Source of the DNA: Caulobacteraceae bacterium
Lineage (GTDB): Bacteria > Pseudomonadota > Alphaproteobacteria > Caulobacterales > Caulobacteraceae
DNA length: 64,000 nucleotides
NCBI GenBank assembly: GCA_965284375.1
Contig: OZ260074.1
Location: 1,904,237 to 1,968,236, forward strand
Direction of reading: 5' to 3'
Of this stretch, positions 7,358-36,030 are shown piece after piece. How positions within the stretch are numbered: position 1 is the stretch's first letter; each line of letters begins with the position of its first letter. A model generated the notes under the pieces. That model had not been told where the DNA came from. It searched no databases and saw only the letters and a list, made by a program, of their open reading frames with translations. A program made the position numbers and the translations under genes.

Positions 7358-7497
7358 GCCGTCGACACGCGGTGCGTCAGACTGTTGCGTCCCGGGGCGC
7401 TTGCGTGTAATGACCCGCGCTCTTGAATTCAGGGTCCCTAGACCCCGCCGCGAGGGCTGACTGGTCAGCGCGGCGTTTGTGTTGTTGAGGCGAGGCG

Positions 7498-15631: not shown

Positions 15632-15672
15632 CCGTGCATCCCCGCGAAGGCGGGGACCCAGGTTTGAGCGGC
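15632..15672 (+). repeat. REP-like palindromic element, left arm of island
   Basis: ccgtgcatccccgcgaaggcggggacccaggtttgagcggc; identical over 41 nt to the reverse complement of 51976-52016 in murD. Confidence 0.92.
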
Positions 15673-15745
15673 AACGAGACGGGCTGAACGAACCCCTGCT
15701 CAACCCGACACCGGCGGCGAAGCCAAAAGGGACGCGTGTTCCCAC

Positions 15746-15818
15746 CGGGAGCCGACCTCAGGTCAGACGGCCGCAAGCGGACATCGCCGATGTCTCCTTT
15801 GGGGGGAAAGCGGACCTT
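15746..15818 (+). repeat. Site A: 5'-truncated bipartite site plus an extra 24-bp unit
   Basis: cgggagccgacc...aagcggac (15746-15782), then gtctcct-ttggggggaa-agcggac (15792-15815). Confidence 0.8.
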
Positions 15819-15899
15819 ACCCTTCTCGGAGACGCGCACCTTATCAGGGTGAAATCGGACCTTGGTTTGCGTCCAGCAGTCGCTTCACTGCTTAGACAG

Positions 15900-16118
15900 A
15901 TGCCGGCGTTCGTCGGAGACGCCGATATCGACTTCATGAAACAGATGCGGGGGCACCACCAGGCCGCTATCGCAATGGCGCGGGTCGAACTTGCGCATGG
16001 CAAGGACGTCCAGGCGCGGGCCCTCGCCCGGGATGTGATCACGGCTCAGGAGCGGGAAATCCAGATGATCGACGTCTGGCTTGGTCAGAAGGCGCCGTCT
16101 GCAGCGCCTGTGGCTTGA
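15900..16118 (+). pseudogene. 5'-truncated DUF305 (CopM-like) gene copy
   Basis: [36 protein letters not shown] is near-identical to the C-terminal half of 20657..21082. Signal peptide and N-terminal half are missing. Confidence 0.75.
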
Positions 16119-16343
16119 CGCCGCATCAGCGCACCACCGTCGGACCGGGTGAATGCGCGAAGTCAGCCGCTGATTGGACTTTGTCGCGGAGGTGCCCTTT
16201 TTGGCTCAAGATACCATCGGTCGCGATCGCCTTTCCTGAGGGGCGCGCTTGGCCAGCGCGTATAGAAGGTCGATACGAAGGGTCTTAAGACACCCGCTTC
16301 GTCGTTGGCCCAAAGGCTGGCTCTTGTTGAAGGAGACTACCCC

Positions 16344-16727
16344 ATGATCCGCACGCTCGCCGTCACCACCGCACTGGCCCTCGCCGGAACCGCCGCCGCA
16401 CAGGACCCCCATGCCGGCCACCACACGCAGGCCCAGGCTGCGATGCCGCAGTCCGGCATCATCACGGTCCCCGCTGACGGTGCCATGTTCTCGGGTTCAC
16501 CCGAACGGTTCTCCGCGACCTTCCCGCACCCGATGTTGCTCAAGACGGTAACCCTGACTGCCGAGGGGCAGGCACCCATTGTCGTGACCGCGCCCGTTTC
16601 GCCCGCCGCAGCGACCGTTGGCGTGGCATTGCCTCGCCTTGCACCCGGAACCTGGACAGCCGCCTGGGCCGCCGAGGGTGCCGACGGCCACAAGATGTCA
16701 GGCTCCAGCAGCTTCATGGTTCACTAG
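16344..16727 (+). CDS. CopC-like periplasmic copper-binding protein with His-rich N-terminus
   Basis: RBS aaggag; signal peptide; QDPHAGHH; WAAEGADGHKMSGSSSF. Confidence 0.8.
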   Translation: MIRTLAVTTALALAGTAAAQDPHAGHHTQAQAAMPQSGIITVPADGAMFSGSPERFSATFPHPMLLKTVTLTAEGQAPIVVTAPVSPAAATVGVALPRLAPGTWTAAWAAEGADGHKMSGSSSFMVH

Positions 16728-16732
16728 GGAGA

Positions 16733-16960
16733 ATGGTGATGAAAGTTTCCAACCTGCTGGCCGCAGCCGGCGCGGTCCTGACCCTCAGTGCTGGCGCGGC
16801 GCTCGCGGCCGATGGCTGCGAATGCTGCAAGGACATGGCTACTGATGCCGCAATGTCCTGCTGTGACAAGATGAAGACAGAACCCGCTCCAGCCCCGGGG
16901 CCCACTCCTGGGGCTGAGGAACCCGCGCCCGCTGCACCCGCAATGAGCCATCAACAATAA
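16733..16960 (+). CDS. Small secreted Cys/Met-rich protein
   Basis: Signal peptide, then ADGCECCKDMATDAAMSCCDKMK; RBS gggag. Confidence 0.7.
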   Translation: MVMKVSNLLAAAGAVLTLSAGAALAADGCECCKDMATDAAMSCCDKMKTEPAPAPGPTPGAEEPAPAAPAMSHQQ

Positions 16961-17015
16961 AGGCGGCCGGCTCGACCACCGCAAAGCCGGTTGGCCGCTC
17001 GCTCGGGGGAGTGAA

Positions 17016-18167
17016 GTGACAGACAGTCGCGGTCCCACACGGGTTCCTTTTCCCGACGTGCTCGATCCGCTCACCGGCGTGAGGTTCTTTCTCGCCCTCG
17101 GGGTCGTCCTGTTTCACTACCAGCTTCAATGGACCTTGCCGGGGGACGGGGGACTGCTGAACCGCGCGCGACTGGCGGTGGATGTGTTTTTCATCCTGTC
17201 GGGCTTCATCCTGACCCACGTCTATCTGCGAGGGGACGGAGCGTTGAACTACCGGCGGTTCCTCGCCGCTCGGTTCGCACGGATTTATCCGGCCCACCTG
17301 TTCATCCTTCTGGCCATGCTCGGGCTGGTGCTGGCAGCGCCCATTTTCGGCGTCGGGTTGGAGCCAGGCCGCTTTAATCCCGCCGACTTCGTAGGCAGTC
17401 TGCTGCTTGTTCAGGCTTGGTTTCCGCGCCAGACCTTGGCGCTCTGGAATGGACCGGCCTGGTCGCTGTCGGCGGAATGGTTCGCCTACTTGGCATTCCC
17501 GGCCTACGCCGCCTTGGCTTTCCGGCTGCGGACCAGACCGTGGGTCATCATCGGCCTCGCGGCGATATCGTTCGTCGTTCTGGACGCCATCTATCGTGCC
17601 CAGTTTGGGCGCGTGCTCCCTCGAGCCGAGGACAGCATGGGCATCCTGCGTATCGTCCCTGAGTTTCTCTACGGCATCGGCCTCTACTACCTCGGCCAGC
17701 GCTGGACGCCGTCGCCGCGCGTGTCAGTTGTGAGTGCATTGGCGACCACGGTCGCGCTGCTCTCGCTGATGCAGTTCGGCGTTGACGACCGCATCATCGT
17801 GGCGGCGGCCGGCCCCTTCATCCTGTCGCTCGCACTGCTGGAGAAGGCGGGCGTGCGGACCTTTCTGTCCCATCCGGTCGCCCTGTTCGCGGGCGAGGCG
17901 TCGTTCGCCCTCTATCTCGTCCACATCCCGATCCTGATGGTTTGGCGCAACGGGGCGCAGGCGCTCACTGGCTGGCCCGGTGATTACCGGATGGGCTTGG
18001 GAGAACTGGCTCCCATGCTGGTGTTGACGCTCGCCGCCGCCGCAGCCATCCATGTCTTCGTTGAGCAGCCGGGCCGACGGTGGCTCCGGGAGTGGATGGT
18101 GCCGAGACCCGTCGATCCCGTCGAGGCCAAACGTTCCGCTCACAGCGATCAGGGAGAGCCGTTTTGA
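17016..18167 (+). CDS. Membrane acyltransferase (acyltransferase-3 / OafA-like)
   Basis: LTGVRFFLALGVVLFH, AVDVFFILSGF, WNGPAWSLSAEWFAY, SFALYLVH. Confidence 0.9.
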   Translation: MTDSRGPTRVPFPDVLDPLTGVRFFLALGVVLFHYQLQWTLPGDGGLLNRARLAVDVFFILSGFILTHVYLRGDGALNYRRFLAARFARIYPAHLFILLAMLGLVLAAPIFGVGLEPGRFNPADFVGSLLLVQAWFPRQTLALWNGPAWSLSAEWFAYLAFPAYAALAFRLRTRPWVIIGLAAISFVVLDAIYRAQFGRVLPRAEDSMGILRIVPEFLYGIGLYYLGQRWTPSPRVSVVSALATTVALLSLMQFGVDDRIIVAAAGPFILSLALLEKAGVRTFLSHPVALFAGEASFALYLVHIPILMVWRNGAQALTGWPGDYRMGLGELAPMLVLTLAAAAAIHVFVEQPGRRWLREWMVPRPVDPVEAKRSAHSDQGEPF

Positions 18168-18640
18168 CATCCGTAACACTGAACCGTCGCCTGCTTTTGG
18201 GGGCCGCCCTTCTTGTCGGGTCGAGCGGGGCGGCTTGCGCCCAGTCGCGTCGGCCACGCGACCTCATGGTCTACAAGACGCCGACCTGCCCATGCTGCGA
18301 TGGGTGGATCGCGCACATGCGCGAGGCTGGATTTGCTGTCACGGTCACTGTCCTTCCCGATCTCCGACCGATCCGGATCGCCAGAGGTTTTCCGGATGCG
18401 CTGGCCTCGTGTCACACCGGACTGATCAATGGCTATCTCGTTGAAGGCCACGTCCCGGCGCCGGACGTCATCCGTCTGCTGAACGAACGGCCGTCGGCAA
18501 TCGGTCTCGCCGTCCCGGCCATGCCGCTGGGCTCTCCCGGGATGGAGACTCCGCAGGGGCACAAGGACGCCTTTGATACCCTGCTGGTGCTCCCGGCGGG
18601 CACCTCCCGCGTGTTCGCTCGCCACAACCAGCCGGCCTGA
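18164..18640 (+). CDS. DUF411 metal-binding protein
   Basis: YKTPTCPCCDGW, LASCHT, VEGHVP, GLAVPAMPLGSPGME. TTG start overlaps the previous stop. Confidence 0.9.
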   Translation: MTSVTLNRRLLLGAALLVGSSGAACAQSRRPRDLMVYKTPTCPCCDGWIAHMREAGFAVTVTVLPDLRPIRIARGFPDALASCHTGLINGYLVEGHVPAPDVIRLLNERPSAIGLAVPAMPLGSPGMETPQGHKDAFDTLLVLPAGTSRVFARHNQPA

Positions 18641-18686
18641 CGCAGGCCACACCCATCCATTCAGATCCCGCAACCCGGAGCCCGCC

Positions 18687-19178
18687 ATGTCCCGCAGACC
18701 TCTTGCTCTCGCGCTGTCGATCGCCGTCCTCTCAGCGATGCCGGCCTTCGCCCAGGACCACGCCCACGGCCATGACCACGCTGCAGGCTCGGTCGCCGAA
18801 GAGGCAGCGGGCGCCGCGGTGGCCGTCGACGCTTTCCACGCCGCATTGAAGGCCGGCGACACGGCCGCCGCCGTGGCCCTGATGGCCCCGGATGTGATGA
18901 TCTTCGAAGAGGGTTACGCGGAGCGATCGCGCGACGAATATGCGTCCCATCACCTGGGTTCGGACGCCGCTTTCGCGGCGGTATCACAGTCCGTGGTGGA
19001 ACGGCGGTCGGGCTGGGCGGACGGCGACATCGCCTGGATCACCAGTGAAGGCCGAACGACGGGTCAGGTTAATAATCGCCCCGTTGATCGCCTGACGACC
19101 GAGACCATGGTCCTGAAGCGCCACGCCGACGGCTGGCACATCCACCACATCCACTGGTCGTCGCGCGCTCCTGGCTAG
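18687..19178 (+). CDS. NTF2/SnoaL-like (DUF4440) secreted protein with His-rich N-terminus
   Basis: Signal peptide, QDHAHGHDH, DAFHAALKAGD, WHIHHIHWSS. Confidence 0.82.
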   Translation: MSRRPLALALSIAVLSAMPAFAQDHAHGHDHAAGSVAEEAAGAAVAVDAFHAALKAGDTAAAVALMAPDVMIFEEGYAERSRDEYASHHLGSDAAFAAVSQSVVERRSGWADGDIAWITSEGRTTGQVNNRPVDRLTTETMVLKRHADGWHIHHIHWSSRAPG

Positions 19179-19192
19179 GCGCGTTCACGACG

Positions 19193-20107
19193 TCACATGG
19201 CCGACGGCGGGGCGAGCGTGCCCATGATCGCGACGACGGCAATGAGCACGGCTCCGACAAGCGTCTCCGCGACGATGCTGCGTCGGAGCCGTTGAAGCGC
19301 CCGTCGAGGATCCTCGCCACCCGCCAGAACCGATCCCAACGTTGGCGTCAGGCGGAAGCGGTTTTCCGCCGCGAGGACCAGCATCAGCGCAAACAGCACC
19401 AGTTTGGCGATCAGGAGCTGGCCGTAAAGGCTGGTTCCCAGACCAGCTATGCGCGCGGGTCCGATCATGAACCAGCTGTTCCCCAGGCCACTCAGGACCA
19501 AGAGCACGACGGCCAAACTCCCCAAGCCCGCAAAGCCACGAAGGGCGCGATGGATCGCCGGGTCATCCGGGGTGGTTCGACGCAGCAAGAGCATCGTCAA
19601 GGCCGCGAGAGCGCCCAACCACAGCGAGGCGGAGACGGCATGGATGATGGCGGCGGTCAGATGCAACAGGCCACCCGGCCCCTCCGTCGCGGCCCCGTGA
19701 CCGGTCCAGGCGAAACTGGCCGATACGACCAGGCCGACCATCGCCAGCACGCCCCAAAGCACCTGTCCTGGCTTGAGGGCGACGATCGCGAGAAGCGCGA
19801 GCCCGGCGAGGACGGCCCGAGCGACCAGGGCCATACCGAGAGCCATGCCCGTGACCATGAAGGACAGCAACGCGGGTTTGAGGGCTTCGCTCAGCGACCC
19901 CGCCATGACCGCCGTCTGTGCCACCAGGGCGGCGAGCGATCCCAGGGCGACGACGGTCGCAGCGATGATCAGCGTCGGGCGCGCCCAGACGACGTTCGGG
20001 CCGCCGCCTCCCCTGAAGCTGTAGAGCAGGAACAGCGGTGCGCCGAGAAGGACGACCGCGCCGCTGTATTGAAGCCAGCGGAGCACAATGACCGCGACTT
20101 CGATCAT
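19193..20107 (-). CDS. copD: Copper homeostasis membrane protein CopD
   Basis: About eight TM segments, AWTGHGAA, H...WLGAL, LIAKLVLF; directly downstream of copC. Confidence 0.9.
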   Translation of the reverse strand: MIEVAVIVLRWLQYSGAVVLLGAPLFLLYSFRGGGGPNVVWARPTLIIAATVVALGSLAALVAQTAVMAGSLSEALKPALLSFMVTGMALGMALVARAVLAGLALLAIVALKPGQVLWGVLAMVGLVVSASFAWTGHGAATEGPGGLLHLTAAIIHAVSASLWLGALAALTMLLLRRTTPDDPAIHRALRGFAGLGSLAVVLLVLSGLGNSWFMIGPARIAGLGTSLYGQLLIAKLVLFALMLVLAAENRFRLTPTLGSVLAGGEDPRRALQRLRRSIVAETLVGAVLIAVVAIMGTLAPPSAM

Positions 20108-20111
20108 GCGG

Positions 20112-20474
20112 TCAGCGCACCGTGAAGGCGTAGGAACCCGTCATTCGGTGGCCGTCGCTTGATGCGATGCGCCAGTCGACGCGGTAGGATCCGGCGGCAA
20201 GACGGCGGGCCAGCCTCCCGTTCAGTGTCTTGCCGTCACGAGCAACCGAGGTTCGGACCGCGACCTTCTCGCCCGCGGTATTGACGACATCGAACCCGGA
20301 AAACGCGGGCACCGTGCGCTCACTGAAGGTCAGGCTCAGCGTCCGGGTTGAGGACACGGTCGCGTTCGGTGCCGGCGTTCCACTGACCAGTCGGGCGAGG
20401 GCCGCCGCTGGTCCGGCGGCGAACGCGACGACGGCCGCGACAGCGATGAATGGCGCGGGGTTGAAGTGACGCAT
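20112..20474 (-). CDS. copC: Copper resistance protein CopC (Leu at the usual N-terminal His position)
   Basis: LVSGTPAPNATV, LTFSE, YRVDWRIASSDGHRMTGSYAFTV. Confidence 0.9.
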   Translation of the reverse strand: MRHFNPAPFIAVAAVVAFAAGPAAALARLVSGTPAPNATVSSTRTLSLTFSERTVPAFSGFDVVNTAGEKVAVRTSVARDGKTLNGRLARRLAAGSYRVDWRIASSDGHRMTGSYAFTVR

Positions 20475-20656
20475 ACTCAGTCTCCAAACATTTGGCCGAT
20501 CCGGCCTTCTGGTTCTTTACGCACCTCGCGGGCACTTCCCTGACGGAGTGCGCGCGACTGACGGTGCCATATGCCAAGGGTGGGTCCTCCGCGTGAGACC
20601 CACTGGCGCTGGCTCCACTGGTCTATCCGGCTACGCCGGTGGCCGTGACGTCGAAG

Positions 20657-21082
20657 TCAGGTAGCGGGCATCGCAGACGCTTGCTTCTGAGTAAGCCAAG
20701 CGTCAATCATCTGGATCTCCCTCTCCTGAGCCGTGATCACATCCTGGGCGAGGGTCCGCGCCTCGGCGTCCTTGCCATGCGCGAGTTCCACACGGGCCAT
20801 AGCGATGGCGGCCTGATGGTGACCCCGCATCTGTTTCATGAAATCGATATCGGCGTCTCCGACGAAGGCGGGCATCTCCTCCATCATGGAGTTCATCGAA
20901 GACTTGTAGCCTCGCGTTGCGACGGAGTCGCCGGCTGCGGTCTGAGCCATGCCGCCCATGTTTCCGTGAGTGTCCGCGGTTGCAGCGACTTCAGTCGGGT
21001 CGGCGGCGGGGTCTGCCGCTTGTTGGGGTGAGCAGGCCGCCGAGAGGGCGCAGGCGGCGAGGATAACACTGATGCGGTTCAT
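20657..21082 (-). CDS. DUF305 (CopM-like) lipoprotein
   Basis: Lipobox LSAC; [25 protein letters not shown]...[12 protein letters not shown]. Confidence 0.9.
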
Positions 21083-21300
21083 GACGGCTCCTTGGGGTCC
21101 CGACGTTAGCGACCAGACCGGCAGGTTCGTTCCGTCAAGCTCTACGGCCCGCCCGCGCCAGGAGTTCGATCAGTTCGGCGGCTTTGGGCCAGGTGCCTGG
21201 GCAAACTGAGGCCGACCACCACGCCCGTTTATGGTTGCGATCTACATGCCGGCTCGCAACGTCGAGGCCCCGTGATGGTTTAAGACGGAGAGGAGCCTCC

Positions 21301-21690
21301 ATGACCTACTACTACAGCAAGACCAGCGATCTCCCGTTCGCGGAGGCCGTGGCACGCACACGCGAGGCTTTGAAAGAGCAAGGCTTCGGGATCATCACCG
21401 AAATCGACGTCACCAACACATTCAAGCAGAAGCTGGACCTCGACTTTCGGCCCTACGTGATCCTTGGCGCATGCAATCCGAAGGCGGCGTATGAAGCGCT
21501 CCTGCAGGAAGACAAGGTCGGCGTGATGCTACCGTGCAATGTCATCGTCCAACAGCGAGCCAGCGGAGGCGGCAGCGAGATCGCTGCGGTCGACCCTGTC
21601 GCCTCGATGTCAGCAATCCAAAACCCGGGTTTGAAGGCGAAGGCCGAGGAGATCGGAGCCAGCCTCAGGCGAGCGCTGGACGCAATCTGA
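21301..21690 (+). CDS. DUF302 domain protein
   Basis: LKEQGFGIITEIDV, YVILGACNP, GVMLPCNVIV; RBS gaggag. Confidence 0.9.
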   Translation: MTYYYSKTSDLPFAEAVARTREALKEQGFGIITEIDVTNTFKQKLDLDFRPYVILGACNPKAAYEALLQEDKVGVMLPCNVIVQQRASGGGSEIAAVDPVASMSAIQNPGLKAKAEEIGASLRRALDAI

Positions 21691-21900
21691 TAAGGCGCGA
21701 GCGGATGAGATCGGTTTACTCCATCCGGCAAAGTCACCCCACGAACTGCTGAGGCGTCCCCCAAGGCGCCTCAGGTAACTCGGAGGCGCTGTCCAACAGG
21801 CATAACTTCAGCCCAAAATCGCCGTGCAGGGTTTCGTCGTGCGGCGACCTCGGCCGTTGCCATTGCGAGCGGGTCGCACTATGGCGGATGCAGGAGTCGT

Positions 21901-22353
21901 TTGACCTTGTCTCGCCTGTTTCGCACTCTCTGCGTCAGCCTGTGCGCCGCCCTCGTGGCGGTTCTGAGTCTGCATGGGATCGAGGAGGGTCGGCACCAGA
22001 TCGCCCATGTGTCGGATTGGCCAGCCGTGGCAATCGACCACAACGATCATGTCGAAATCGCTGATGTCGATCACGGGGCGCTGCACATCCATGTCGCCCC
22101 CGGCGCGCCGGCCGATGACCCGCAGGATCAGGCCGAAGGCAGTAATGGCGATGAGGATGCCGGACGGCCCGCCAGCCATCACCACCATTCCAGCGGCGAT
22201 AATCACACCGCGATACCGGTCCTCCACCGCGACCTGAACCCTATCGTCGCCATCAACGCCGCGCTTCTCCAGCCGGCGGTCGATAGCGCACGCCCTGCCC
22301 ACGACGGCGACGGGCCTGAATACCCTCCTAAACGGACGCGCACGATCGTCTGA
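21901..22353 (+). CDS. His-rich protein upstream of czcCBA (CzcI/DUF2946-like)
   Basis: N-terminal hydrophobic segment, many His (SHHHHS), C-terminal GPEYPPKR. Confidence 0.7.
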   Translation: MTLSRLFRTLCVSLCAALVAVLSLHGIEEGRHQIAHVSDWPAVAIDHNDHVEIADVDHGALHIHVAPGAPADDPQDQAEGSNGDEDAGRPASHHHHSSGDNHTAIPVLHRDLNPIVAINAALLQPAVDSARPAHDGDGPEYPPKRTRTIV

Positions 22354-22404
22354 TCCGACGCGACCAGCCGGTCGCGCGCGCACCCCGTTTCCTGGAGATC
22401 TCCC

Positions 22405-23717
22405 TTGAAGACCCCATCGTCCGGCCTTGCCGGGCCGTGGGCGCGACTGACGGCCGTGTCGGCACTCGCGCTCATTCTGGCCGCTTCGCTGCCTCCGACC
22501 CCCGCTGTCGCTCAGGATGTGGCGGCGACCAACGCCTCGCCTGTCCTGTCACTGGACGAGGCACTGCAACGCTCTGCGCATGTCGATCCAGCCCTGGCTC
22601 CAACCCAGGCCAGACGATCGGCGTCGCTTGCAGCCGTGCGCCAGGCCGATGTTCGGCCCAATCCCACGGTGGGGGTCATGGTCGAGAACTTCCCGACTAT
22701 CGGCGGCGGAGACCTGTTCCGCCGCACCGAGACCACGCTCAGTGTCGAGCAGCGTTTCGAGCGTGGTGGTGACCGTCAGGCGCGGGTCTCTCTCGCCGAA
22801 GCCGAAGGGCTGCTCCTCGACGCCTCCGCCCGCATCCGCCAACTGGATCGGCTCGAACAGGTGCAGCGCGCCTGGGCTGACGCTCTGGCGGCCCAGGCCG
22901 AACTGGAGATCGCACGTGAGCGTCTCGACCTTGCCGAACGGTTCCAGACGGAGGTCGGTCGTCGGGTGGACATGGCGCGCGATCCTCTGTTCGCCGGTGC
23001 GCGAGCAGAAGCCGAACTGGCCCAGGCGCAGATCGATTTCGATCAGGCCGGGATCGCCGTTCGGGTCGCCAAAATCTCTCTGGCCCGGTTCTGGGATGGA
23101 TCGGCGGACTTCAGCCTCGGTGCCGACACCTTCGCCGATACCCGGTCATCGCTCACCATTGCGGACGGGGTCGCCCAGGCGGACCTCGACATCTTCGTCG
23201 CCCAGCGGGACATCGCCATCGCCCGCGTGGCCGTGGAGACCGCCCGCGCCCGCTTGGACGCTACGATCAGCGCTGGGGTTCGTCACTTCGGCGATGGCAA
23301 CGACCTCGGGTTCGTCATCGGTGGCTCGATCCCTCTGGGTCGCTATGACCAGAACCTCGGTGCCATCGACCGCGCCCGAGCGGAGGGTCTGGCCGCCGAG
23401 GGGGACCTCGCCGCCGCCCGCATCGATCGGGAGCGCGAGATCGCGCGCTTGCAGGTGCAGGTCATGGCTCGCGCCAGCGAAGCGCGGCGGATCGGGGAAG
23501 AGACCCTGCCCCAGGCCGAGCGCGCCGTCGTGCTCGTGCGTGACGGCTTCAACCGGGGCGGCTTCACCTACAACGACGTGATCTCCGCCCAGACCGCGCT
23601 GCTGCAAACCCGCGCCCGTCGCGTCGCAGTGCTCAAACAGTTCCACATCGATCGCGCCCGCCTCGACCGGCTGACCGGCGCGCACGGCGACCTGATCCTC
23701 GCCCTGGAGACCCAACC

Positions 23718-23721
<4 letters not shown>
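22405..23721 (+). CDS. czcC: Heavy-metal RND efflux outer membrane protein (TolC family)
   Basis: TolC-like helical repeats; first gene of a C-B-A operon. Confidence 0.9.
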
Positions 23722-28183
<4,462 letters not shown>

Positions 28184-28224
28184 CGACAGAGGCTAACATG
28201 ACGGACGGGCCTTACGCCCGTCCG

Positions 28225-29556
28225 TCAGTCCTTGGCCTTGGGCCATCGCGGATGTCTCTCGTCGATGACGAAGGGATGGCTGTGCACCGCATCGTCGGAT
28301 CGGCCTTCTGACAGATGGGGATCGCTGCCGGTCAGTTCGTCGTGATGATGCGGCAGGTCCGCCGGGTCGTTGGCGGGCCAGACCACGAAGCCGAGGACCG
28401 TGCCGACGGCGCATAGGCCCGCCAGCACAAGGAAGGCCGCGCTGGGGTCCGCCGCCGCGCTGACCAGACCCGCGACCGGATAGGCGATCAGCCATGCGGC
28501 ATGCGACAAGGCGAACTGCGCCGCGAACAGGGCCGGGCGATCCTGTGCGTTGGACGACCGGCGAAGTGCGCGGCCCGCAGGCGTCAGGGTCAGGGAATAG
28601 CCCACACCCATGATGGCCCACAGGACCACTAGAACGACATAGCTCGTCGCCAACACTGAGCCCGCCAGGAGCACAACCGTCATGATCGCCGCGCCCCACA
28701 GCATGGCCGTGCGGTCGGCGATCCTGTCCAGCAGGCGCGGCAGGGCGATCGCCGCCGCCATAGACCCGACCCCGAAAGCCGCCAGCGCCCAGGCGGCGGC
28801 CTGACCGGACATGCCGAAGCGCGACTGCACGAGCACCACGGTGTTGACGAAAACCATGGCACCCCCGGCGGCCTCGGCGATGCTGATCGCGATCAGGCCG
28901 CGCAGACGGGGGGTCAGCGCGAACAACCGCACACCGCCGGTCAGCCGCTGCACAAAGGGCTTCTGGATCGTTTGGGTCAGAACCGGCAGGGCGGCGCTGA
29001 CGACGAACGCAGCCGAAATGACGAAGCCGAGTGCGGTGCCTGCGAACAGATTGTTGTAGCTCATGAATGCCAGAAGAACGGCCGCCAGAACGGGGCTTGC
29101 CACGCTCTCCAGATCGGCCGCCAGACGCGAGAGCGACAGCGCCTTGGTGTATTCGCCCTCGTCCGGCAGAAGATCGGGGATCATGGCCTGAAACGCGGGC
29201 GTGAAGGCCGCAGACGCCACATAGAGAACCGTCATCAGGGCGTAGACCTGCCAGGCTTCGCCCACGAACGGCAGGGCTGCGGCAACACAGGCGCGGACGA
29301 CGTCGAGCGATACGAGAAGGGTCTTGCGAGGAAGTCTGGCCGCCAGCGCGCTCGCAAACGGCGCGACGCCGATATAGGCGATCATCTTGATAGCGAGCGC
29401 CATCCCCAGCACTTCGCCGGCGTTGGCACCCGCCAGGTCATGCGCCAGCAAACTCAACGCCACCGTGGCCATGCCCGTGCCGAGCAGGGCCGCGACCTGG
29501 GCGATGAAAAGGTGCCGGTAGCCGGCGTGCCGAAGCGGTGAAATCATGGACAGCAT
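28225..29556 (-). CDS. nreB: MFS transporter, NreB/NrsD-like nickel efflux, with His-rich tail
   Basis: YRHLFIAQVAALLGTG...ALAIKMIAYIGVAP, AAQFALSHAAWL, tail PHHHD...HSHPFVIDERHPRWP. Confidence 0.85.
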   Translation of the reverse strand: MLSMISPLRHAGYRHLFIAQVAALLGTGMATVALSLLAHDLAGANAGEVLGMALAIKMIAYIGVAPFASALAARLPRKTLLVSLDVVRACVAAALPFVGEAWQVYALMTVLYVASAAFTPAFQAMIPDLLPDEGEYTKALSLSRLAADLESVASPVLAAVLLAFMSYNNLFAGTALGFVISAAFVVSAALPVLTQTIQKPFVQRLTGGVRLFALTPRLRGLIAISIAEAAGGAMVFVNTVVLVQSRFGMSGQAAAWALAAFGVGSMAAAIALPRLLDRIADRTAMLWGAAIMTVVLLAGSVLATSYVVLVVLWAIMGVGYSLTLTPAGRALRRSSNAQDRPALFAAQFALSHAAWLIAYPVAGLVSAAADPSAAFLVLAGLCAVGTVLGFVVWPANDPADLPHHHDELTGSDPHLSEGRSDDAVHSHPFVIDERHPRWPKAKD

Positions 29557-29595
29557 CCAGCAGGCGGGGCTTGGCGTATGACGAGCCCTATTCGA

Positions 29596-29652
29596 GGTAA
29601 GCCATCGCGCAAAGCGGACGTTCCCGATGACTTCGATGGGTCAAAGGCGGCC
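29596..29652 (+). repeat. Decayed copies of the 24-bp unit
   Basis: aaagcggac (29611-29619) and gacttcg-atgggtcaaa-ggcggcc (29629-29652). Confidence 0.6.
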
Positions 29653-29671
29653 GTCTTGGCCGTTCGACGGA

Positions 29672-29726
29672 AATGTCCGCTTTGGGTCGGAAGCCGACCG
29701 TCGCTGAACGGTGGGAAGCGGACATT
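29672..29726 (+). repeat. Site B (49-bp bipartite core 29675-29723)
   Basis: aatgtccgctttgggtcggaagccgaccgtcgctgaacggtgggaagcggacatt. Confidence 0.92.
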
Positions 29727-29768
29727 GAAAAGCCGCTTCTTAAGAGGCACCGTGATCTGTCTCAAGGG

Positions 29769-30185
29769 GTGGAGAAGTCTGTCATAGCTACCAAAATCAC
29801 GCCCGCGAAAGCCGTCAGCCGTGGCACCCTGACCGTCAACGGCGCGGTCATGTCGATGATGTTTGGCCTCCCGGCGTTCGCTTTTGCGATGACCCTGCTC
29901 CTTGGGTTTGATGGGCAGACAGCCGCGCCAGTGGCAGGGCTCACCTTCTTCGCAAGCTGGCCGTTGGCTTGGCTCACATGGTCCCTTCTCGTCGTCCGGT
30001 GGAGGGTTTGGGCTTACGAGCGAGTTGACGATCTGGACGAACTAAAGATGCACGCGGTGGCTGCCGGTCTGATCTGGCGCGACGGGCACTTCTTCGAGCG
30101 AACGGAAATCCGCTCGCAGCATCAACGCAAACGCATTCGCGAACTTGAGCAGGATTGGGCAGCAAGGCGTGGAGACCGGGGCTAG
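29769..30185 (+). CDS. Hypothetical membrane protein (cassette 1)
   Basis: Two TM segments, then VRWRVWAYERVDDLDELK...GLIW. Start uncertain. Confidence 0.75.
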   Translation: MEKSVIATKITPAKAVSRGTLTVNGAVMSMMFGLPAFAFAMTLLLGFDGQTAAPVAGLTFFASWPLAWLTWSLLVVRWRVWAYERVDDLDELKMHAVAAGLIWRDGHFFERTEIRSQHQRKRIRELEQDWAARRGDRG

Positions 30186-30202
30186 CCTGCCATCTCGCTA
30201 GG

Positions 30203-30255
30203 AGGTCCGCTTTGGGTCGGGACCGGACGGTCGCCCAACGGCCGAAAGCGGACCT
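30203..30255 (+). repeat. Site C (core 30205-30253)
   Basis: aggtccgctttgggtcgggaccggacggtcgcccaacggccgaaagcggacct. Confidence 0.92.
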
Positions 30256-30315
30256 GTCTGACGGTTTAGCTCCTGCACCCCCAGACGGCGTATCCGTAGT
30301 CGACACAGCTATCGC

Positions 30316-30483
30316 TCAGAGAAGTTTGCGCTCCCAGGCCTCTTGCGCATCGGCGGTAAGGGCCAAGGCAGTCCACTCACGGGCGTGGGTGGCGTAGATT
30401 GCCTTCACGCCTAGGCTTGTTGCCTCCGCCGCCCGCATGAGAGCGTCGGTAGCTTTCGCTCGGCAGGCTTTGGCGTTCATCAT
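30316..30483 (-). CDS. Small hypothetical helical protein, 55 aa (cassette 2)
   Basis: MMNAKACRAKATDALMRAAEATS...AREWTALALTADAQEAWERKLL. Confidence 0.55.
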   Translation of the reverse strand: MMNAKACRAKATDALMRAAEATSLGVKAIYATHAREWTALALTADAQEAWERKLL

Positions 30484-30639
30484 GGCGGCATAGCCATGCG
30501 CCCTATCGCAAGGAATAGCGCAGTCTTTCTGCGGTGTAGCTTGCGACGGGGCCATCGCCACCTTCCGAACCTTGTTCTCAAAGGCGGCTTTGTCCTCGTC
30601 GCACTCTAGCTCGCGGGCTAGGATGACCCTACTCCTTGG

Positions 30640-30716
30640 GTTTGCTGGGCGGGAAAGCCGCCCGCCGCCTGAGGGTCAGAAGCACACCGTCGCTTTAGAA
30701 TGAACGGTGGATGCCG
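30640..30716 (+). repeat. Site D: three decayed tandem units
   Basis: gtttgct..gggaaagccgcc, gccgcct-gagggtcaga-agcacac, then gtcgct[ttagaat]gaacggtgga, which matches unit 2 of site B with a 7-nt insert. Confidence 0.65.
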
Positions 30717-30717
30717 T

Positions 30718-31698
30718 TTAGGTAAGTCGGGCCTCGGGTCGAGTGCCACCTATAAAGGCATGGATGCGTTCAGCGATAGCGTCGTCGTGGCCGAGCCAAA
30801 TGTGGCCACCGGTGGGATAGATCGTAAGTTCTGAGTGCGGGACCACAGCAGCAATTTTGCGTGCGGTGGCGGCGGTGCCAAACCGGTCGTCTTCAGCAGA
30901 AATCACTAACAGCGGCATAGTTAGAGCGGAAAAATCCATCTTCGCCGGATGCCCTGCCTGCACGGCGTCGTTTAGCATGCCCCTTGTTCGCGCGCGTATC
31001 GGCATAATGTCAGACGCGATGGAATATGCCCGCCTGCGCTCGCTCAGGCTGACTTTCGACAACAGACGCGGGTCCGTGGCTAGGAGCGTGCCAATCAGCA
31101 TTTCGGGATTTGCGTTGAGAGCCGACCAGTAGAGAAAGTCCGAGTTGAGCACCGCTCGGACGGCTGCCTGTTGCATGCCGCTCATTTCTACCGGATCGCT
31201 CCCGCTGACGTTCGCTGCAGGGACCAGCAAGATTAGACCGCTGCACCGATCGGAATGCCGCAAAGCGAATGCCGACGCAGACAACGCTCCTGCCGAACCA
31301 CCAATGACGGGAAGCTGATCGATCTGGAGATGATCGAGCAGCGTGACGAAGGCGTCGGCCTGATTGGCCAGGGACGGGTCAACCGGAAATTCGCTCCGCA
31401 GATACCCGAACCGCGAAGGGGCGATGACGCGATGCCCGAGATCCTGGAGCGCCGAACCGAACCGCAGCCCCTGATCGAAGCCACCGCCGGTGCCGTGGAT
31501 CATCAGGACAGGGGAGCCGGTGCCCGCAACGGCATACTCGAGTGCGCCAAATGCGGACTGTATGATCTGGCTTCGACCGGAGATGCGTCGCTCGGCCGCT
31601 TCTACGGCATGCCGGAAGCGCGTTGAGACATATCCGCCGCCCAGCAAGGCGACGGCTCCCGTTCCCAGCAACCACTGTCGGCGGCTAATCCGGCTCAT
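30718..31698 (-). CDS. Alpha/beta hydrolase (cassette 3)
   Basis: VLMIHGTGGG, IAPSRFGY, nucleophile elbow GGSAGA, PTGGHIW. Confidence 0.9.
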   Translation of the reverse strand: MSRISRRQWLLGTGAVALLGGGYVSTRFRHAVEAAERRISGRSQIIQSAFGALEYAVAGTGSPVLMIHGTGGGFDQGLRFGSALQDLGHRVIAPSRFGYLRSEFPVDPSLANQADAFVTLLDHLQIDQLPVIGGSAGALSASAFALRHSDRCSGLILLVPAANVSGSDPVEMSGMQQAAVRAVLNSDFLYWSALNANPEMLIGTLLATDPRLLSKVSLSERRRAYSIASDIMPIRARTRGMLNDAVQAGHPAKMDFSALTMPLLVISAEDDRFGTAATARKIAAVVPHSELTIYPTGGHIWLGHDDAIAERIHAFIGGTRPEARLT

Positions 31699-32096
31699 CC
31701 CTGTTCACGTCTGCCTATAAACACGGGCATCAGAGCGGCGATCATCTGGGCCGAAAGACCGACCAGTCCTGCGGTCGTAGCCAGCGCTGCCCACTGCTCC
31801 GGCACCGATCGTCCGAATAGCGCTGCACCGAGCAGCGCCTCGAACGCGAACAGCAATAGGACGAACCACAGGACCATCGCCCAGCGGATCGAAGCATCAC
31901 GAGGCACCTGCCAGTGCCTGACCGACCAACGGCAGGCAAAAACGGCGGCCACAAGCATCAACGGCACTTCGGCAGCCGTTGCAATGAGCTCACCGAGGCG
32001 CGGCGCGATGTAAATCACGCGGATAGTCCCCAGGCCGAAGCCTAAGGCAAACAGCGCCAAGAAATACATAGTTCCAGCGATCAGGGCGCGTTTCAA
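31695..32096 (-). CDS. Hypothetical membrane protein (cassette 3), coupled to the hydrolase
   Basis: Four TM segments, GTIRVIYIAPRLGE..A..AEVPLML; 4-nt overlap with the hydrolase start. Confidence 0.75.
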   Translation of the reverse strand: MKRALIAGTMYFLALFALGFGLGTIRVIYIAPRLGELIATAAEVPLMLVAAVFACRWSVRHWQVPRDASIRWAMVLWFVLLLFAFEALLGAALFGRSVPEQWAALATTAGLVGLSAQMIAALMPVFIGRREQG

Positions 32097-32307
32097 AACA
32101 GTTCCCTGCAATGTCAAACTTGGCGATACCAGTAAGGCCCCGTATTCGCATGGAGCCATAACGGTGCAGGACCAATACGACCGTTCGCACGGAAGAGCCT
32201 ACTCTTTCTGCGGCGTAGCTTGTTCGAGTCGGCGCTTCTCTCCCTGTGACCGCAGTTCAAGGAGAGAGCGCACGGCCGTTGCAACGACTTCCGCCAACAG
32301 CGGCTGC

Positions 32308-32358
32308 ATGTCTGCAACGGGTCGGGAGCAGACCGTCGCCTAGGGGTGGAAAGCAGCC
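32308..32358 (+). repeat. Site E (core 32310-32358)
   Basis: atgtctgcaacgggtcgggagcagaccgtcgcctaggggtggaaagcagcc. Confidence 0.85.
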
Positions 32359-32442
32359 GGTCAACAAAGCGACGATATGCGCTTGCCGATCCCGCTCGAC
32401 GGGGGCAGTCGGTCGGGCATGAGGCCCAAGAACGCGACCGAT

Positions 32443-33264
32443 TTAGGTGCGTGTACCGACGGCCAAAAGATATTCCACCTCGAAGCGCGCCTTATCAGCG
32501 CCTCCGCGGTTCCAGCGCGCCGTCAACGCCTCAAGCGTCTCGTCGAGCTGACTTTCGCAACCATCCTTTTTCGCGTTGGCGCGGGCAACGATTGTCGGCC
32601 CATAGGAGGCCGACATATGGGCGGCGTAGTCGGCGGGCTTTTCGAAGGCTGTGACTTCGAGATTCTCACGATCCAGCGTTCGCCAATGCACCCGCTCGCC
32701 GAACAGCTTTTGAACGTGCCCTTCACTACCCCACAACGGAGGCGGCTGGGCTCCCGGCGGGGGCGGCGGCGCAAAGGGCCTCATAGTCTTGAACAGATCG
32801 CCGACCATGCCTTCAGGTGTCCAGTTGAGCATCCCAATGGTCCCGCCCGAGCGGCACACTCGGACCAGCTCGTCGGCCACTTTCTGATGATGCGGAGCGA
32901 ACATCGCACCGATCGATGACATGACGACATCAAAGGACTCGTCTTCGAAGGGCAAATTTTCGGCGTCGGCCTCTACCCATTCTAGCTGGACGCCCTCACG
33001 CTTTGCGCGCTCGCGGCCGGCGTCGAACAGCTCGGGAGTGAGGTCGCTCGCGGTAACGTGCGCGCCGATGGCGGCGGCAGGGATCGAAGCGTTGCCCGTG
33101 CCCGCAGCAACGTCGAGAATTTTCATGCCCGATTGAATCTCGCACGCTCGGACCAGGCGGGGGCCGAGCGGCAACAGAAACGTCTCGACCATCTGAGGAT
33201 AGTCGCCCGAAGCCCACATCTGACGATGGCGCATTTTAAGATCTGAATCGGATATCTCAGACAC
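32443..33264 (-). CDS. Class I SAM-dependent methyltransferase (cassette 4)
   Basis: ILDVAAGTGNA, ADAENLPFEDESFDVV, ELVRVCRSGG; RBS ggaggg before GTG 33264. Confidence 0.92.
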   Translation of the reverse strand: MSEISDSDLKMRHRQMWASGDYPQMVETFLLPLGPRLVRACEIQSGMKILDVAAGTGNASIPAAAIGAHVTASDLTPELFDAGRERAKREGVQLEWVEADAENLPFEDESFDVVMSSIGAMFAPHHQKVADELVRVCRSGGTIGMLNWTPEGMVGDLFKTMRPFAPPPPPGAQPPPLWGSEGHVQKLFGERVHWRTLDRENLEVTAFEKPADYAAHMSASYGPTIVARANAKKDGCESQLDETLEALTARWNRGGADKARFEVEYLLAVGTRT

Positions 33265-33360
33265 CGTTGACCCTCCCTCGCGACCCACTGAAACGACACG
33301 CTCAACGGACACGCGCAGGAGCTTAGGCATATCGGGAACCCCGACAATGTTAAACAGCTT

Positions 33361-33413
33361 AGGTCCGCTTTGGGTCGGGAGCCGACGGTCGCTCTAGGGC
33401 GGAAAGCGGACCT
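33361..33413 (+). repeat. Site F (core 33363-33411)
   Basis: aggtccgctttgggtcgggagccgacggtcgctctagggcggaaagcggacct. Confidence 0.92.
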
Positions 33414-33648
33414 TAGCCTAAGGCAAGTTATTGGACTCGGATCTGGTCACTGTCGTCGGAGCACGTGCTTCCTTGGTTCGGGGCGGCAAACGTTCTTGTC
33501 AGCCCAAAATGATCCGATAGCCTAGCCCAACACCTCATAACTTCCTGTTCCGCGCACCGCCTGCTCTGGGCCCCTTATGCGGACCAATCCTCAGAGCGAC
33601 CGGTGCCGGAGGCAACTCAGAAATCGTTTGGGCTAACAACACACATCG

Positions 33649-35139
33649 TCACCGCTGAACGTAGAAGCCTCGGTCATCTTGTGTCAGATTGATCAACGGG
33701 CCGATCGGAAAACTTACCCCTCGCCGGACTAACTCGGTTCTCACCTGTACGAGAGCGTCTAGTTCGTCCTGCGGGATACCGCTCTGCCCCTGCGCCGTCT
33801 CTAAGGTGGCACCGAGGTGGACCGGATCGCCGGCCCAGCCGCGATCTATCAGCCAGACGACCTTCTTCCACTGGCTCATGACCGAGGCTGTCTGCATCAA
33901 GGGTGCGCCCTCCGGCGCAATCCCGTCCGGGTCGGCACCGGCTGACAGAAGGGCGTCCCAGTTCGCCCAAGCCGCCGCCTCAGGCAGTCCGTCCACCCGC
34001 TCCAGACTTGACGCCAGATTCAGAGCAATCTGAAGCGCGGTTTCTCGGTCGTCATAGGCATTGGCGTCGCCGCCGCGATCCAGCAGTTGTTGAAGGATGG
34101 CCGGTTCGCGCGTTTCCGCCGCAACCGTCACCGGCGTCGCGCCGAACTCCTCGCGCCGGTTGGGATCGGCACCCGCGTCCAGCAGGGCTTCGACCCCTGT
34201 CACGCTGCCGCAATCAATAGCCCACAGGAGCGGGGTCACCCGTTGAGTACTCCCTCCCGGCCCGGAGCCCTCGCCGCCTATTGAGTTGGGGTCGGCACCG
34301 GCACCAATAGCCGCGACGACTGCCACCGTATCGCCCGCGCATGCTGCGCGGGCCAAGGCGGCGACCGTATTGTCGGGAAACAGATCGCCTGCGGTCAGGC
34401 CAAACATTGCGTGTTCCCCGCCCGCGCGGTCGAAAGCAACCATTGCCCCCATGTTTCTGAACAGTTGGTTCTGGGCCTCGCCGCAGACCGCATGCGCGCA
34501 ATAATCCGCTTGCGCAGCCGCGATCTGGTTCTGCACCAAATCGACGCCCGCTTCCTTCAGCGCCTCGCTACCTTCGACCCTTACCAATGCCTGTCCCGCC
34601 GCGCTTTCACTGAAGGCTATCGACGTCGGCGAAGGGTCAAAGGGCACCATTTGCTCCAGCCTCTGCTGGTCACCGTTCTCCAGCATGGTCAGATACTGAT
34701 CGAGGTACCCCGCCTTGGCGTTGAGCCCCGCCTGCCCCTCGGGAGAAGTGTAGAAGGCGATGACCGCGCGCATGTCCTCGTCCGTCATCCCGCGGGCATA
34801 TCGATCGACAAAAATCTCGCGGCTCTGTTCTGCCCCGACAGCGGCTCCCATCTCAAAGCTCTGAAAAAGTTGGGCTTCGTCAAGCGCCGGAGCCCCTCCG
34901 GAAAAACCGATCGTGCTGATGAGAGTCTGCTGGATTGCCTGTTCGGACATGCGCAGGACCAAAGAATCGATCACGGGTGGCTGGATGGCCTCCAGCAGTT
35001 CTCGGGCCAACGCCAGCCGATCAGGGCCGGGATCGATCGCGATCGACTGCGCCGATGCGGCCGTCGCCATAAGTGGCAGTCCGACCAGGATCGCCGCCCA
35101 CTTAGTCCAAAAACGCATCACACGCCTCCTCACACTCAC
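33649..35139 (-). CDS. Secreted DUF2059-like plus ankyrin-repeat protein (cassette 5)
   Basis: Signal peptide; YARGMTDEDMRAVIAFYTSPEGQ; ankyrin repeats VTPLLWAIDCG..LLDAGADPN, ATPVTVAA, ETALQIAL. Start approximate. Confidence 0.8.
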   Translation of the reverse strand: MSVRRRVMRFWTKWAAILVGLPLMATAASAQSIAIDPGPDRLALARELLEAIQPPVIDSLVLRMSEQAIQQTLISTIGFSGGAPALDEAQLFQSFEMGAAVGAEQSREIFVDRYARGMTDEDMRAVIAFYTSPEGQAGLNAKAGYLDQYLTMLENGDQQRLEQMVPFDPSPTSIAFSESAAGQALVRVEGSEALKEAGVDLVQNQIAAAQADYCAHAVCGEAQNQLFRNMGAMVAFDRAGGEHAMFGLTAGDLFPDNTVAALARAACAGDTVAVVAAIGAGADPNSIGGEGSGPGGSTQRVTPLLWAIDCGSVTGVEALLDAGADPNRREEFGATPVTVAAETREPAILQQLLDRGGDANAYDDRETALQIALNLASSLERVDGLPEAAAWANWDALLSAGADPDGIAPEGAPLMQTASVMSQWKKVVWLIDRGWAGDPVHLGATLETAQGQSGIPQDELDALVQVRTELVRRGVSFPIGPLINLTQDDRGFYVQR

Positions 35140-35371
35140 CGACCCTAAGTTGATCGCTTGCGAAATGTCGAGCCTGCCGCTCTCCTCCCATTCCCGGCAC
35201 TCCTCGGCCCAATAGTCTCCCCCATGAGCGACGACTCCTACGGGTCTGTCAGCCCAAATTCAGTCGCTCGGTAGTCAGGGTTGCCTACCGTCGCTGCCGT
35301 GGCCAGATCGATCAATTCGTTCCGCTATTTCGAAAGCTCGCCGGGGAAGTGATCAAGCCAAGTCATTTCGC

Positions 35372-35426
35372 AATGTCCGCTTTGGGTCGAGAGCCGACCA
35401 TCGCCTGAGGGTGGGGAGCGGACGTT
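35372..35426 (+). repeat. Site G (core 35375-35423)
   Basis: aatgtccgctttgggtcgagagccgaccatcgcctgagggtggggagcggacgtt. Confidence 0.92.
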
Positions 35427-35459
35427 GAAGTTCTGGCAGCGTTCCGACAAACTATTGTC

Positions 35460-35888
35460 ATGAGCCGCTCACCGAACCAGCGACCGTCGATCAGACAAGC
35501 AGCCTTCGCGCTCCTTATCCTCGTAGTCGCGTTGGCCAACGAGTGGTTTTTGGGGTTCAGATTGGACAACGCGGCGGGTCGCTCCGCAGAACTTTTCATG
35601 GCGATTGCATTGATTGCCTCCGCAACAATAGTTTTTGCCCCGCTTGGCCGCCCCCGGAGAATACTTGCCGCAGTATTGGCATTCGTTTCAGTCGTTTTGC
35701 TCTGGGTGATTAATGCGAAATTCAGCATTAAGTTAGATGTCGCATTTGGCGGCGAGTACGGCTGGAGCGGGACCAAATTTGCCTGGATGGTGGTGCTTGG
35801 ACCAGTCTTTGGCCTGGTTGCGATGATCCTTACGTTCGGTTTCGCGCACCTCCGCGCCTTCAATCGCCCCCCCTTCACCGGAAGTTGA
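35460..35888 (+). CDS. Hypothetical membrane protein, four TM segments (cassette 6)
   Basis: 142-aa hydrophobic ORF with AT-richer codons; stop lies 2-4 nt before site H. Confidence 0.75.
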   Translation: MSRSPNQRPSIRQAAFALLILVVALANEWFLGFRLDNAAGRSAELFMAIALIASATIVFAPLGRPRRILAAVLAFVSVVLLWVINAKFSIKLDVAFGGEYGWSGTKFAWMVVLGPVFGLVAMILTFGFAHLRAFNRPPFTGS

Positions 35889-35890
35889 AG

Positions 35891-35917
35891 GAGTCCGCTA
35901 CGGGTCGGGAGCAGACC
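35891..35917 (+). repeat. Site H: single 24-bp unit (3'-truncated site)
   Basis: gtccgct-acgggtcggg-agcagac (35893-35916); unit 2 is absent. Confidence 0.85.
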
Positions 35918-35987
35918 TTGACTGACCCGCACAAAGCAGACGCCGTGCGGGTCCCTTGCCCCCCGGACCTGCGGTCCAGGGGCGGTG

Positions 35988-36030
35988 GCCAAGCTAAAGC
36001 CCGGGTCCCCGCCTTCGCGGGGATGCACGG
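35988..36030 (-). repeat. REP-like palindromic element, right arm of island
   Basis: Reverse complement ccgtgcatccccgcgaaggcggggacccgggctttagc; matches the arm at 51887 (…cccaggctttggc). Confidence 0.92.

Follow-up and report, generated by a model that had tools for sequence, protein, structure and literature searches.

Tandem 49-bp core sites and a candidate small tyrosine recombinase: a putative integron-like gene-cassette system in a Caulobacteraceae genome

Can an array of accessory genes delimited by a regularly repeated site be a gene-cassette system outside the integron family, and, if so, which enzyme serves it? The question is raised by a 64,000-nt stretch of DNA (hereafter the window) from a Caulobacteraceae bacterium, probably of the genus Brevundimonas, whose genome (assembly GCA_965284375.1; here G000) consists of a single contig, OZ260074.1 (here C1), of 2.95 Mb with 67% G+C. 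The window corresponds to C1:1904237-1968236, and between the genes ppdK and ccrM it contains copies of a 49-bp site with single genes or gene pairs lying between them. An earlier note, made from the letters of the window alone, had described this island as an integrase-less cassette array whose site is neither attC nor dif. Our reading is that the 49-bp element is a double-strand site made of two tandem tyrosine-recombinase cores, and that a 208-amino-acid (aa) tyrosine recombinase is the proposed enzyme of an integron-like cassette system; we would put the probability of this reading at roughly 65%.

Five full sites are found in the window, all on the forward strand and each composed of two 24-bp units in tandem with one nucleotide between them (24+1+24). 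With up to two mismatches the motif GTCCGCT-N10-AGCNGAC has 20 matches in the window against 3.7 expected, a number reached in none of 100 shuffles, and the whole sites match a profile of the element with E-values of 1e-13 to 1e-19. Motif counts, coordinates and profile E-values thus bear out the five co-oriented double-unit sites of the earlier note. Its partial sites at the island ends and the decayed copies between them could also be located (Table 1), and the stop codons at 30185, 30718 and 35888 do abut sites as it had stated.

We write the site as a-O1-b, n, c-O2-d, with a to d for the arms, O1 and O2 for the central hexamers and n for the 1-nt joint. The consensus of 26 copies from G000 reads AAN GTCCGCTAT GGGTCG GGAGCCGAC N GTCGCCTNN GGGTGG AAAGCGGAC NTT; 12 columns of the alignment are invariant and 16 nearly so. 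Each unit has inverted arms of 9-12 bp flanking a 6-bp centre, which is the core geometry of tyrosine recombinases, as in lox, FRT and dif, and agrees with the layout that had been proposed for a single unit. The outer arms, a = (AAN)GTCCGCTWT and d = AAAGCGGAC(NTT), are near-perfect inverted repeats of one another; the inner arms, b = GGAGCNGAC and c = GTCGCCTNN, are weaker variants, and the two overlaps, O1 = GGGTCG and O2 = GGGTGG, are one base apart. Single cores, of the type a-O-d or c'-O-d, also occur (C1:516055, 526713, 558449, 1489972 and 2470586; window 15792).

Shared cassettes were sought by an all-against-all comparison of the arrays in G000 and other species of the genus. Every genome compared is a separate species, the closest ccrM identity being ≤89%. 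Five cassettes proved to be common to different arrays or species. Of their ten boundaries every one (10/10) lies inside a site, against well under one tenth of the array sequence that sites occupy. Where the boundaries are resolved sharply they coincide with the edges of the hexamers O1 or O2, 9-34 nt inside the site.

The individual cases are informative. The first cassette is present in nearly identical form twice in G000 (C1:2459263-2459677 and 558449-558864); identity sets in at the c/O2 edge of the upstream site, the left arms of unit 2 differ, and beyond the single core that closes the copy at 558k the DNA is unrelated. The second is shared by the 340k and 2110k arrays of G023 (98.7% over 709 bp): the a arms differ, and the shared stretch runs exactly from the a/O1 edge of the upstream site to the O1/b edge of the downstream site. 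The third is cassette 1 of the window (29672-30231), which is 90-91% identical to two copies in G023 that are ~98% identical to each other; the common stretch extends from O2/d to a/O1, with its left boundary inside O2 and its right one at O1/b, the middle pieces b-n-c are unrelated, and one upstream site has collapsed to a single a-O-d core, AACGTCCGCAAC-GGGTCG-GAAGCGGAC. The fourth, the methyltransferase cassette (32316-33378), matches contig C16 of G004 at 87%, and identity stops right after GGGTCGG; in G004, O1 is followed by non-site DNA. The fifth is a 73% pair inside G005 that ends at model positions 51-52 (just before O2) and 36 (the end of O1). By this comparison the sites are the crossover points, and they appear to behave as the overlap region of a tyrosine recombinase. 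Since the breakpoints fall at the hexamers and half-cores are joined to unrelated DNA, the exchanges resemble neither recombination at the R' box of attC nor homologous recombination. The capture and shuffling of cassettes that had been proposed for the window is supported by the recurrence of the same cassettes in other arrays and species with breakpoints at the 6-bp centres.

Both strands of the site fold strongly in single-strand prediction (z = -2.3 to -5.4), with an outer stem and two small hairpins. Taken with the position of sites at gene ends and the presence in the window of a second, unrelated family resembling repetitive extragenic palindromes (REP), this folding could favour a structural repeat of the REP type or of the bacterial interspersed mosaic element (BIME) type, acting as a terminator or mRNA-stabilising hairpin, with sharing of genes by homologous recombination between repeats. 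Compensatory covariation was not detected: 82.0% of cells are paired, compared with 81.4% after column shuffling, the covariation score is 0.097 against 0.099, and covariation of the flank positions across 44 sites from several species is not significant (p = 0.16). As pairing is no better than in shuffles and the flanks do not covary, we read the palindromy as that of conserved protein-binding arms; no sign of selection for a folded single strand was seen. A search of the genome for Y1_Tnp/RAYT genes (PF01797) gave no match, the sites are restricted to accessory arrays and not dispersed through intergenic regions, open reading frames (ORFs) lie in either orientation to the site, and joins of a half-core to non-site DNA are impossible for homologous recombination. 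We therefore regard the structural-repeat explanation as having only a small chance of being correct. In an Rfam scan of the window the only match was RNase P, so the site corresponds to no known RNA family in Rfam; the match itself is an RNase P RNA of class A (60804-61180, minus strand, 305.7 bits).

Another explanation, that the arrays are diverged clusters of attC sites (CALIN) left behind by a classical integron, would account for an element of ~60 nt with AAN...NTT flanks that recall the R''/R' boxes, for cassettes of ~0.4-2 kb and for several arrays being without an integrase. AAC...GTT flanks in some of the G000 copies would also fit attC, and one flank position gave an apparent covariation in the 26 sites of G000; this vanished in the larger set of 44, and the breakpoints exclude a GTT crossover, being at the central hexamers and not between G and TT of R'. 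It is the sequence that is conserved rather than the structure, and the ORFs are not co-oriented. A search of the genome for IntI (TIGR02249), for which the cut-off is 265 bits, gave no integron integrase; the best matches were two Xer-like genes with 82 and 68 bits. Integrons are in any case extremely rare in Alphaproteobacteria according to IntegronFinder 2.0 (PMC9024848). Leftover attC arrays thus seem to us scarcely credible, and the description of the site as neither attC nor dif is supported.

An iterated nhmmer profile identified 27 good and ~14 weak copies across G000, with clusters at ~525k, 558k, 859k, 1490k, 1933-1940k (the window), 2458-2471k (12 copies), 2769k and 2835-2845k. The full sites are grouped in about seven arrays, with a single orientation per array and a spacing of mostly 0.4-2 kb. 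Genome-wide scatter of the units had been named in advance as an observation that would count against a cassette system; sites do exist beyond the locus, but they are confined to these arrays and linked to accessory genes. The genes between sites have a G+C content at third codon positions of 0.63-0.75, against a genome median of 0.79, and are mostly small, without a Pfam match and in many cases apparently membrane-embedded; the remainder include a hydrolase, a methyltransferase, an ankyrin protein, sensor kinases and a large secreted protein. Of 24 intervals, only 9 have their longest ORF in the orientation of the site.

No recombinase gene is present in the window itself, and any enzyme acting on its sites must therefore act in trans. 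At the end of the largest array, 530 kb from the window, a single-copy gene (C1:2469905/2469929-2470555) encodes a tyrosine recombinase of 208 aa. Its only Pfam match is PF00589 (residues 47-200, E = 6e-15); against curated Xer and integrase models it falls far below every cut-off, with 49 bits to XerC models and no match to integron integrase, and a sequence search of the PDB found no relative at sequence level. R59, K87, H156, R159, H182 and Y191 are invariant in 23 members of the family from alpha-, beta- and gammaproteobacteria. An AlphaFold2 model (pLDDT 78, pTM 0.74) has a disordered N-terminus (residues 1-27) and a catalytic-domain fold from residue 28, for which Foldseek returned XerA, XerH, lambda Int, Cre and Tn1549 Int (E = 1e-8 to 1e-5). 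With the catalytic set and the Phage_integrase fold both present, the protein is a member of the tyrosine recombinase superfamily. At only 208 aa it has no normal core-binding domain, which in simple tyrosine recombinases occupies ~100 aa at the N-terminus, and the 14 subgroups of simple tyrosine recombinases described in PMC8138268 include no such catalytic-domain-only family. The only other tyrosine recombinases detected in G000 are XerC- and XerD-like genes at 814 kb and 2786 kb. The term integrase-less is thus true of the window and not of the genome, which carries a core-flanked small tyrosine recombinase that co-occurs with site-rich genomes; similarly, the proposal of a recombinase or HUH enzyme acting in trans holds as to trans action, but its HUH/RAYT variant is unlikely in a genome without a Y1_Tnp gene.

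The recombinase gene of G000 is placed where the orientation of the sites flips, with an array on the minus strand to its left and plus-strand sites to its right. Upstream of the gene, at 35-90 nt, there are inverted cores, and the stop codon is closely followed by a hairpin and a core. When the loci of G000, G023 (two copies) and G004 are aligned, homology begins ~90 nt 5' of the start codon and stops exactly after the downstream core, GTCTCYTTY-GGGKGG-RRAGCGGAC, within ~50 nt of the gene; in G023 and G004 cassettes follow directly. The gene is also located 0.5-3.5 kb from co-oriented sites in G056, G090, G045 and G116, and it adjoins sites in at least seven species. Directly after the stop codon there is a conserved short palindrome, GGGTCCGCCAGAAAGCGGACCC (G000 C1:2470556-2470585; locus L017, about 7483-7520), which is built from the site arms, set just 6 nt apart, and could be a terminator or an autoregulatory binding site.

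For the genus, recombinase presence and site counts were scored across a set of 101 genomes. The gene is intact in 17 of these and present as fragments or stop-containing copies in ~12, so it is often inactivated; the second G023 copy (G023:C1:1704523-1705146, L020) has one in-frame TAG. Of the 17 genomes that have the gene intact, 5 contain ten or more sites, as does 1 of the remaining 84 (Fisher p = 4e-4; p = 0.002 without G000; Mann-Whitney p = 0.001). The co-occurrence of sites with a recombinase, which the earlier note had suggested checking, is thus seen in five of the six genomes with at least 10 sites. The link is a correlative one, as is the assignment of the enzyme, and several observations weigh against it. 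One site or more is retained by 43 of the 84 genomes that have no intact gene, among them G005 with 13 sites; conversely, four gene-bearing genomes have no site that scores against the model trained on G000. Of 79 homologue loci from different classes, only 20 show a d arm by a strict pattern within the 140 nt 3' of the stop, against a background of 6.5%. The arms measure 9-12 bp, yet the recombinase lacks the core-binding domain with which to read them, and the model offers no origin for the invariant 1-nt joint between the cores. The evidence for recombination is that of genome comparison, and the genomes compared are all of different species.

Some of these observations would be expected if the sites are genuine and are served by the host XerC/XerD or by another protein, the small recombinase then being an invertase with a different role or a passenger cassette: in many genomes sites persist although the intact gene is missing, the XerC- and XerD-like genes are at hand, and the arm-6-arm geometry is like that of dif and pdif. 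Set against this, all the loci examined show the recombinase gene with cores of its own in conserved positions, homology stopping after the core, and the gene is enriched in site-rich genomes. Arm sequence and recombinase are moreover conserved together across classes, and each array keeps a single orientation, whereas pdif modules alternate. We consider service by Xer or another protein unlikely, and return to the small recombinase as the proposed enzyme.

In the mechanism that we propose, the recombinase would bind the arms, and strand exchange would take place at the O1 or O2 borders. When two co-oriented sites recombine through like cores, a circle would be released with at least one cassette and a single full site. 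Either core, 1 or 2, could then serve this circle to re-enter any full site, be it in the array of origin, in a different array or in a different genome. Use of either core would separate the middle piece b-n-c from the cassette, so that only d...a travels along; in this model it is the mixed use of the two cores that explains why b-n-c does not accompany the cassette. Rare exchanges between core 1 and core 2 would collapse a site to a single a-O-d core, which would explain the single cores. The array in the window may then be a recombinase-less array served in trans, or the relic of one. A model of the attL x attR kind, in which a circle with a single a-O-d core enters an empty c-O-b site, was also considered; no c-O-b core with a GGGT centre is present in the genome, and for this reason circles with a full double site are preferred.

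In spacer variants of lox and FRT, a difference of one base in the overlap lowers cross-reaction. Since O1 and O2 differ in the same way, they are probably partly heterospecific, and a partial incompatibility of this kind would stabilise the sites and could permit cassette swapping. The sequence comparisons show how the sites are built and clustered, that cassettes are shared with breakpoints at O1/O2, and that the recombinase gene adjoins sites and co-occurs with them; from these we infer the small recombinase as the enzyme, the circular intermediates and the partial O1/O2 incompatibility.

How does such a system relate to those already known? The feature is real and works like an integron while lying outside the integron family; its closest mechanistic relatives are core-type systems such as pdif and lox. 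With integrons it shares small, mostly uncharacterised cassettes between co-oriented sites of ~50-60 bp, a tyrosine recombinase, the same cassette in different arrays and genomes, and recombinase-less arrays beside one linked to a recombinase. The differences lie in the enzyme, which consists of the catalytic domain only and lacks the IntI-specific insertion, and in the sites, which are sequence-conserved double-strand cores, two in tandem per site, with crossover at 6-bp overlaps instead of on a folded strand between G and TT. Furthermore, the array begins at the 3' end of the recombinase gene, and with ORFs lying either way round there is no common Pc promoter logic. The pdif modules of Acinetobacter plasmids, which are moved by XerC/XerD, are likewise recombinase-free modules bounded by arm-6-arm cores and common to several replicons; these, however, have single 28-bp dif-like sites in alternating orientation and rely on the housekeeping Xer proteins, whereas here double cores of 49 bp, apparently unrelated to dif in sequence, stand in one orientation and a dedicated recombinase gene carries the same cores.

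FimB and FimE, which act on fimS, are also tyrosine recombinases of ~200 aa without a full core-binding domain, a likeness of size and layout, and in G000 and G056 inverted sites stand on both sides of the recombinase gene. The Fim proteins invert one promoter segment between two 9-bp inverted repeats, whereas most of the sites described here are direct repeats bounding mobile cassettes. A parallel in layout is offered by the heterospecific lox or FRT pairs used for recombinase-mediated cassette exchange, in which a cassette stands between cores with the same arms and overlaps one base apart (here GGGTGG on the left and GGGTCG on the right). Such a layout permits swapping and discourages loss; in the present case it is natural and not engineered, and the comparison presupposes the O1/O2 incompatibility that we propose.

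In nine other species of the genus, the distance from the start of ppdK to ccrM is 0.3-4.4 kb, without sites in between, and in four of them the gap is only ~300-370 bp. Since ~20.8 kb (from ~15.2k to 36.05k) are absent from these nine, we interpret them as an insertion. A comparison of cassette content at this locus, as the earlier note had proposed, thus reveals the island as an insertion but no readable cassette-by-cassette polymorphism, the relatives all being other species. The left junction of the island starts at the O1/b edge of a site, which fits the entry of a site-bearing circle into a secondary target via core 1. The metal-resistance region (13.9 kb, 15.8-29.7 kb) had been counted as one cassette. 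This was not confirmed, and we rejected it: the region is a mosaic put together from cop, czc and MFS blocks that are widespread in the genus, and the shared blocks end away from sites.

Table 1. Features of the site-bearing island in the window (window coordinates).
Feature	Position	Strand	Remarks
Truncated site, left end of island	15746..15783	+	Starts at right edge of O1: ..CG/GGAGCCGAC C TCAGG..GCAAGCGGAC; without left arm of unit 1; weak profile match
Single 24-bp core, GTCTCCTTT-GGGGGG-AAAGCGGAC	15792..15815	+	Same kind as the core 3' of the recombinase stop in four loci
Metal-resistance mosaic	15816..29674		DUF305, CopC/CopD, acyltransferase, czcCBA-like RND efflux, MFS (Pfam scans)
Full site B (a-O1-b n c-O2-d)	29675..29723	+	
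Cassette 1	29724..30204	+	170-aa membrane ORF; two copies in two other arrays, of G023
Full site C	30205..30253	+	
Cassette 2	30254..32309	-	alpha/beta hydrolase 30718-31698 and 154-aa ORF 31695-32159; contains decayed site
Decayed site copy	30652-30716		Within cassette 2
Full site E	32310..32358	+	
Cassette 3	32359..33362	-	S-adenosylmethionine (SAM) methyltransferase 32443-33330; also in G004:C16, 87% identity
Full site F	33363..33411	+	
Cassette 4	33412..35374	-	496-aa DUF2059/ankyrin protein 33649-35139
Full site G	35375..35423	+	
Cassette 5	35424..35892	+	142-aa membrane ORF 35460-35888
Site H, right end of array	35893..35941	+	Unit 1 (35893-35916) intact; unit 2 decayed, still ends AAAGCAGAC; spacing correct

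Other repeats are present in and around the island. A perfect 26-bp REP-like element, GTGCATCCCCGCGAAGGCGGGGACCC, occurs at window positions 15634-15659 (+), 36003-36028 (-), 51889-51914 (+) and 51989-52014 (-); the first two copies form an inverted pair that brackets the whole island, and the last two a doublet 75 nt apart. A stretch of ~550 bp that separates ppdK from the left end of the island (15165-15715) has a 95% repeat at C1:1610324-1610877 (-) and an 88% match in G070:C62. Within the metal region there is an inverted 194-bp duplication (15898-16091 and 20684-20877, 88.7% identity), which overlaps a DUF305-type ORF (15849-16118) and another ORF (20657-21082).

The distribution of the recombinase family is much wider than the genus. 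At least 8000 candidates were found, all with E ≤ 1e-10, and 547 stretches were confirmed in contigs from one genome per species. Members with 57-95% identity come from Brevundimonas, Caulobacter, Phenylobacterium, Bosea, Methylobacterium and Sinorhizobium, and also from Zoogloea, Massilia, Paraburkholderia, Pseudomonas, Pseudoalteromonas and Methylomonas. Plasmids such as pMOL30 carry homologues too, annotated only as 'tyrosine-type recombinase/integrase'. Beside several of the beta- and gammaproteobacterial homologues we found the same arms (GTCCGC..GCGGAC) with another overlap, for example GTCGCTAAC-CGGCCA-GAAGCGGAC, sometimes inverted on both sides of the gene. In some full sites from other species of the genus a second type of unit 2 is found, for example TTTGGCATCTGGCCCGAAACCGGAC (L132 3492-3540, L119 5758-5806 and L124 18925-18973); its centre resembles the CGGCCA overlap, which suggests several overlap classes.

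Motif searches in other genera gave partial support, suggesting a wider generality of the system, and a self-BLAST of 80 homologue loci, aimed at arrays outside the genus, found little, the method being insensitive to diverged 50-nt repeats. A search of the full-text literature found no description of the recombinase family or of the site. The broadest interpretation is that of a second, integron-independent system of cassette capture and exchange in Proteobacteria, with a highly conserved family of 208-aa, catalytic-domain-only recombinases, 24-bp GTCCGC..GCGGAC cores and, in Brevundimonas, a double heterospecific form of 49 bp. The double form would offer two alternative crossover points for the insertion, excision or swapping of cassettes. 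The arms being conserved across classes, we propose that cassettes would be interoperable between distant hosts. We offer this interpretation tentatively, and judge it to fall a little short of an even chance.

To our knowledge, no natural platform other than the integron is well established as a means of stockpiling and shuffling cassettes of single genes. The arrays described here look like an as yet undescribed, integron-like system in a bacterial class with very few true integrons. If a second platform of this kind does exist, it raises the question of how a tyrosine recombinase without a core-binding domain recognises its arms, and a very small recombinase with naturally paired, near-identical sites may serve genome engineering. 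The cores would provide a sequence signature for locating cassette pools in metagenomes, and the system would account for the movement of small accessory genes between islands in such genomes.

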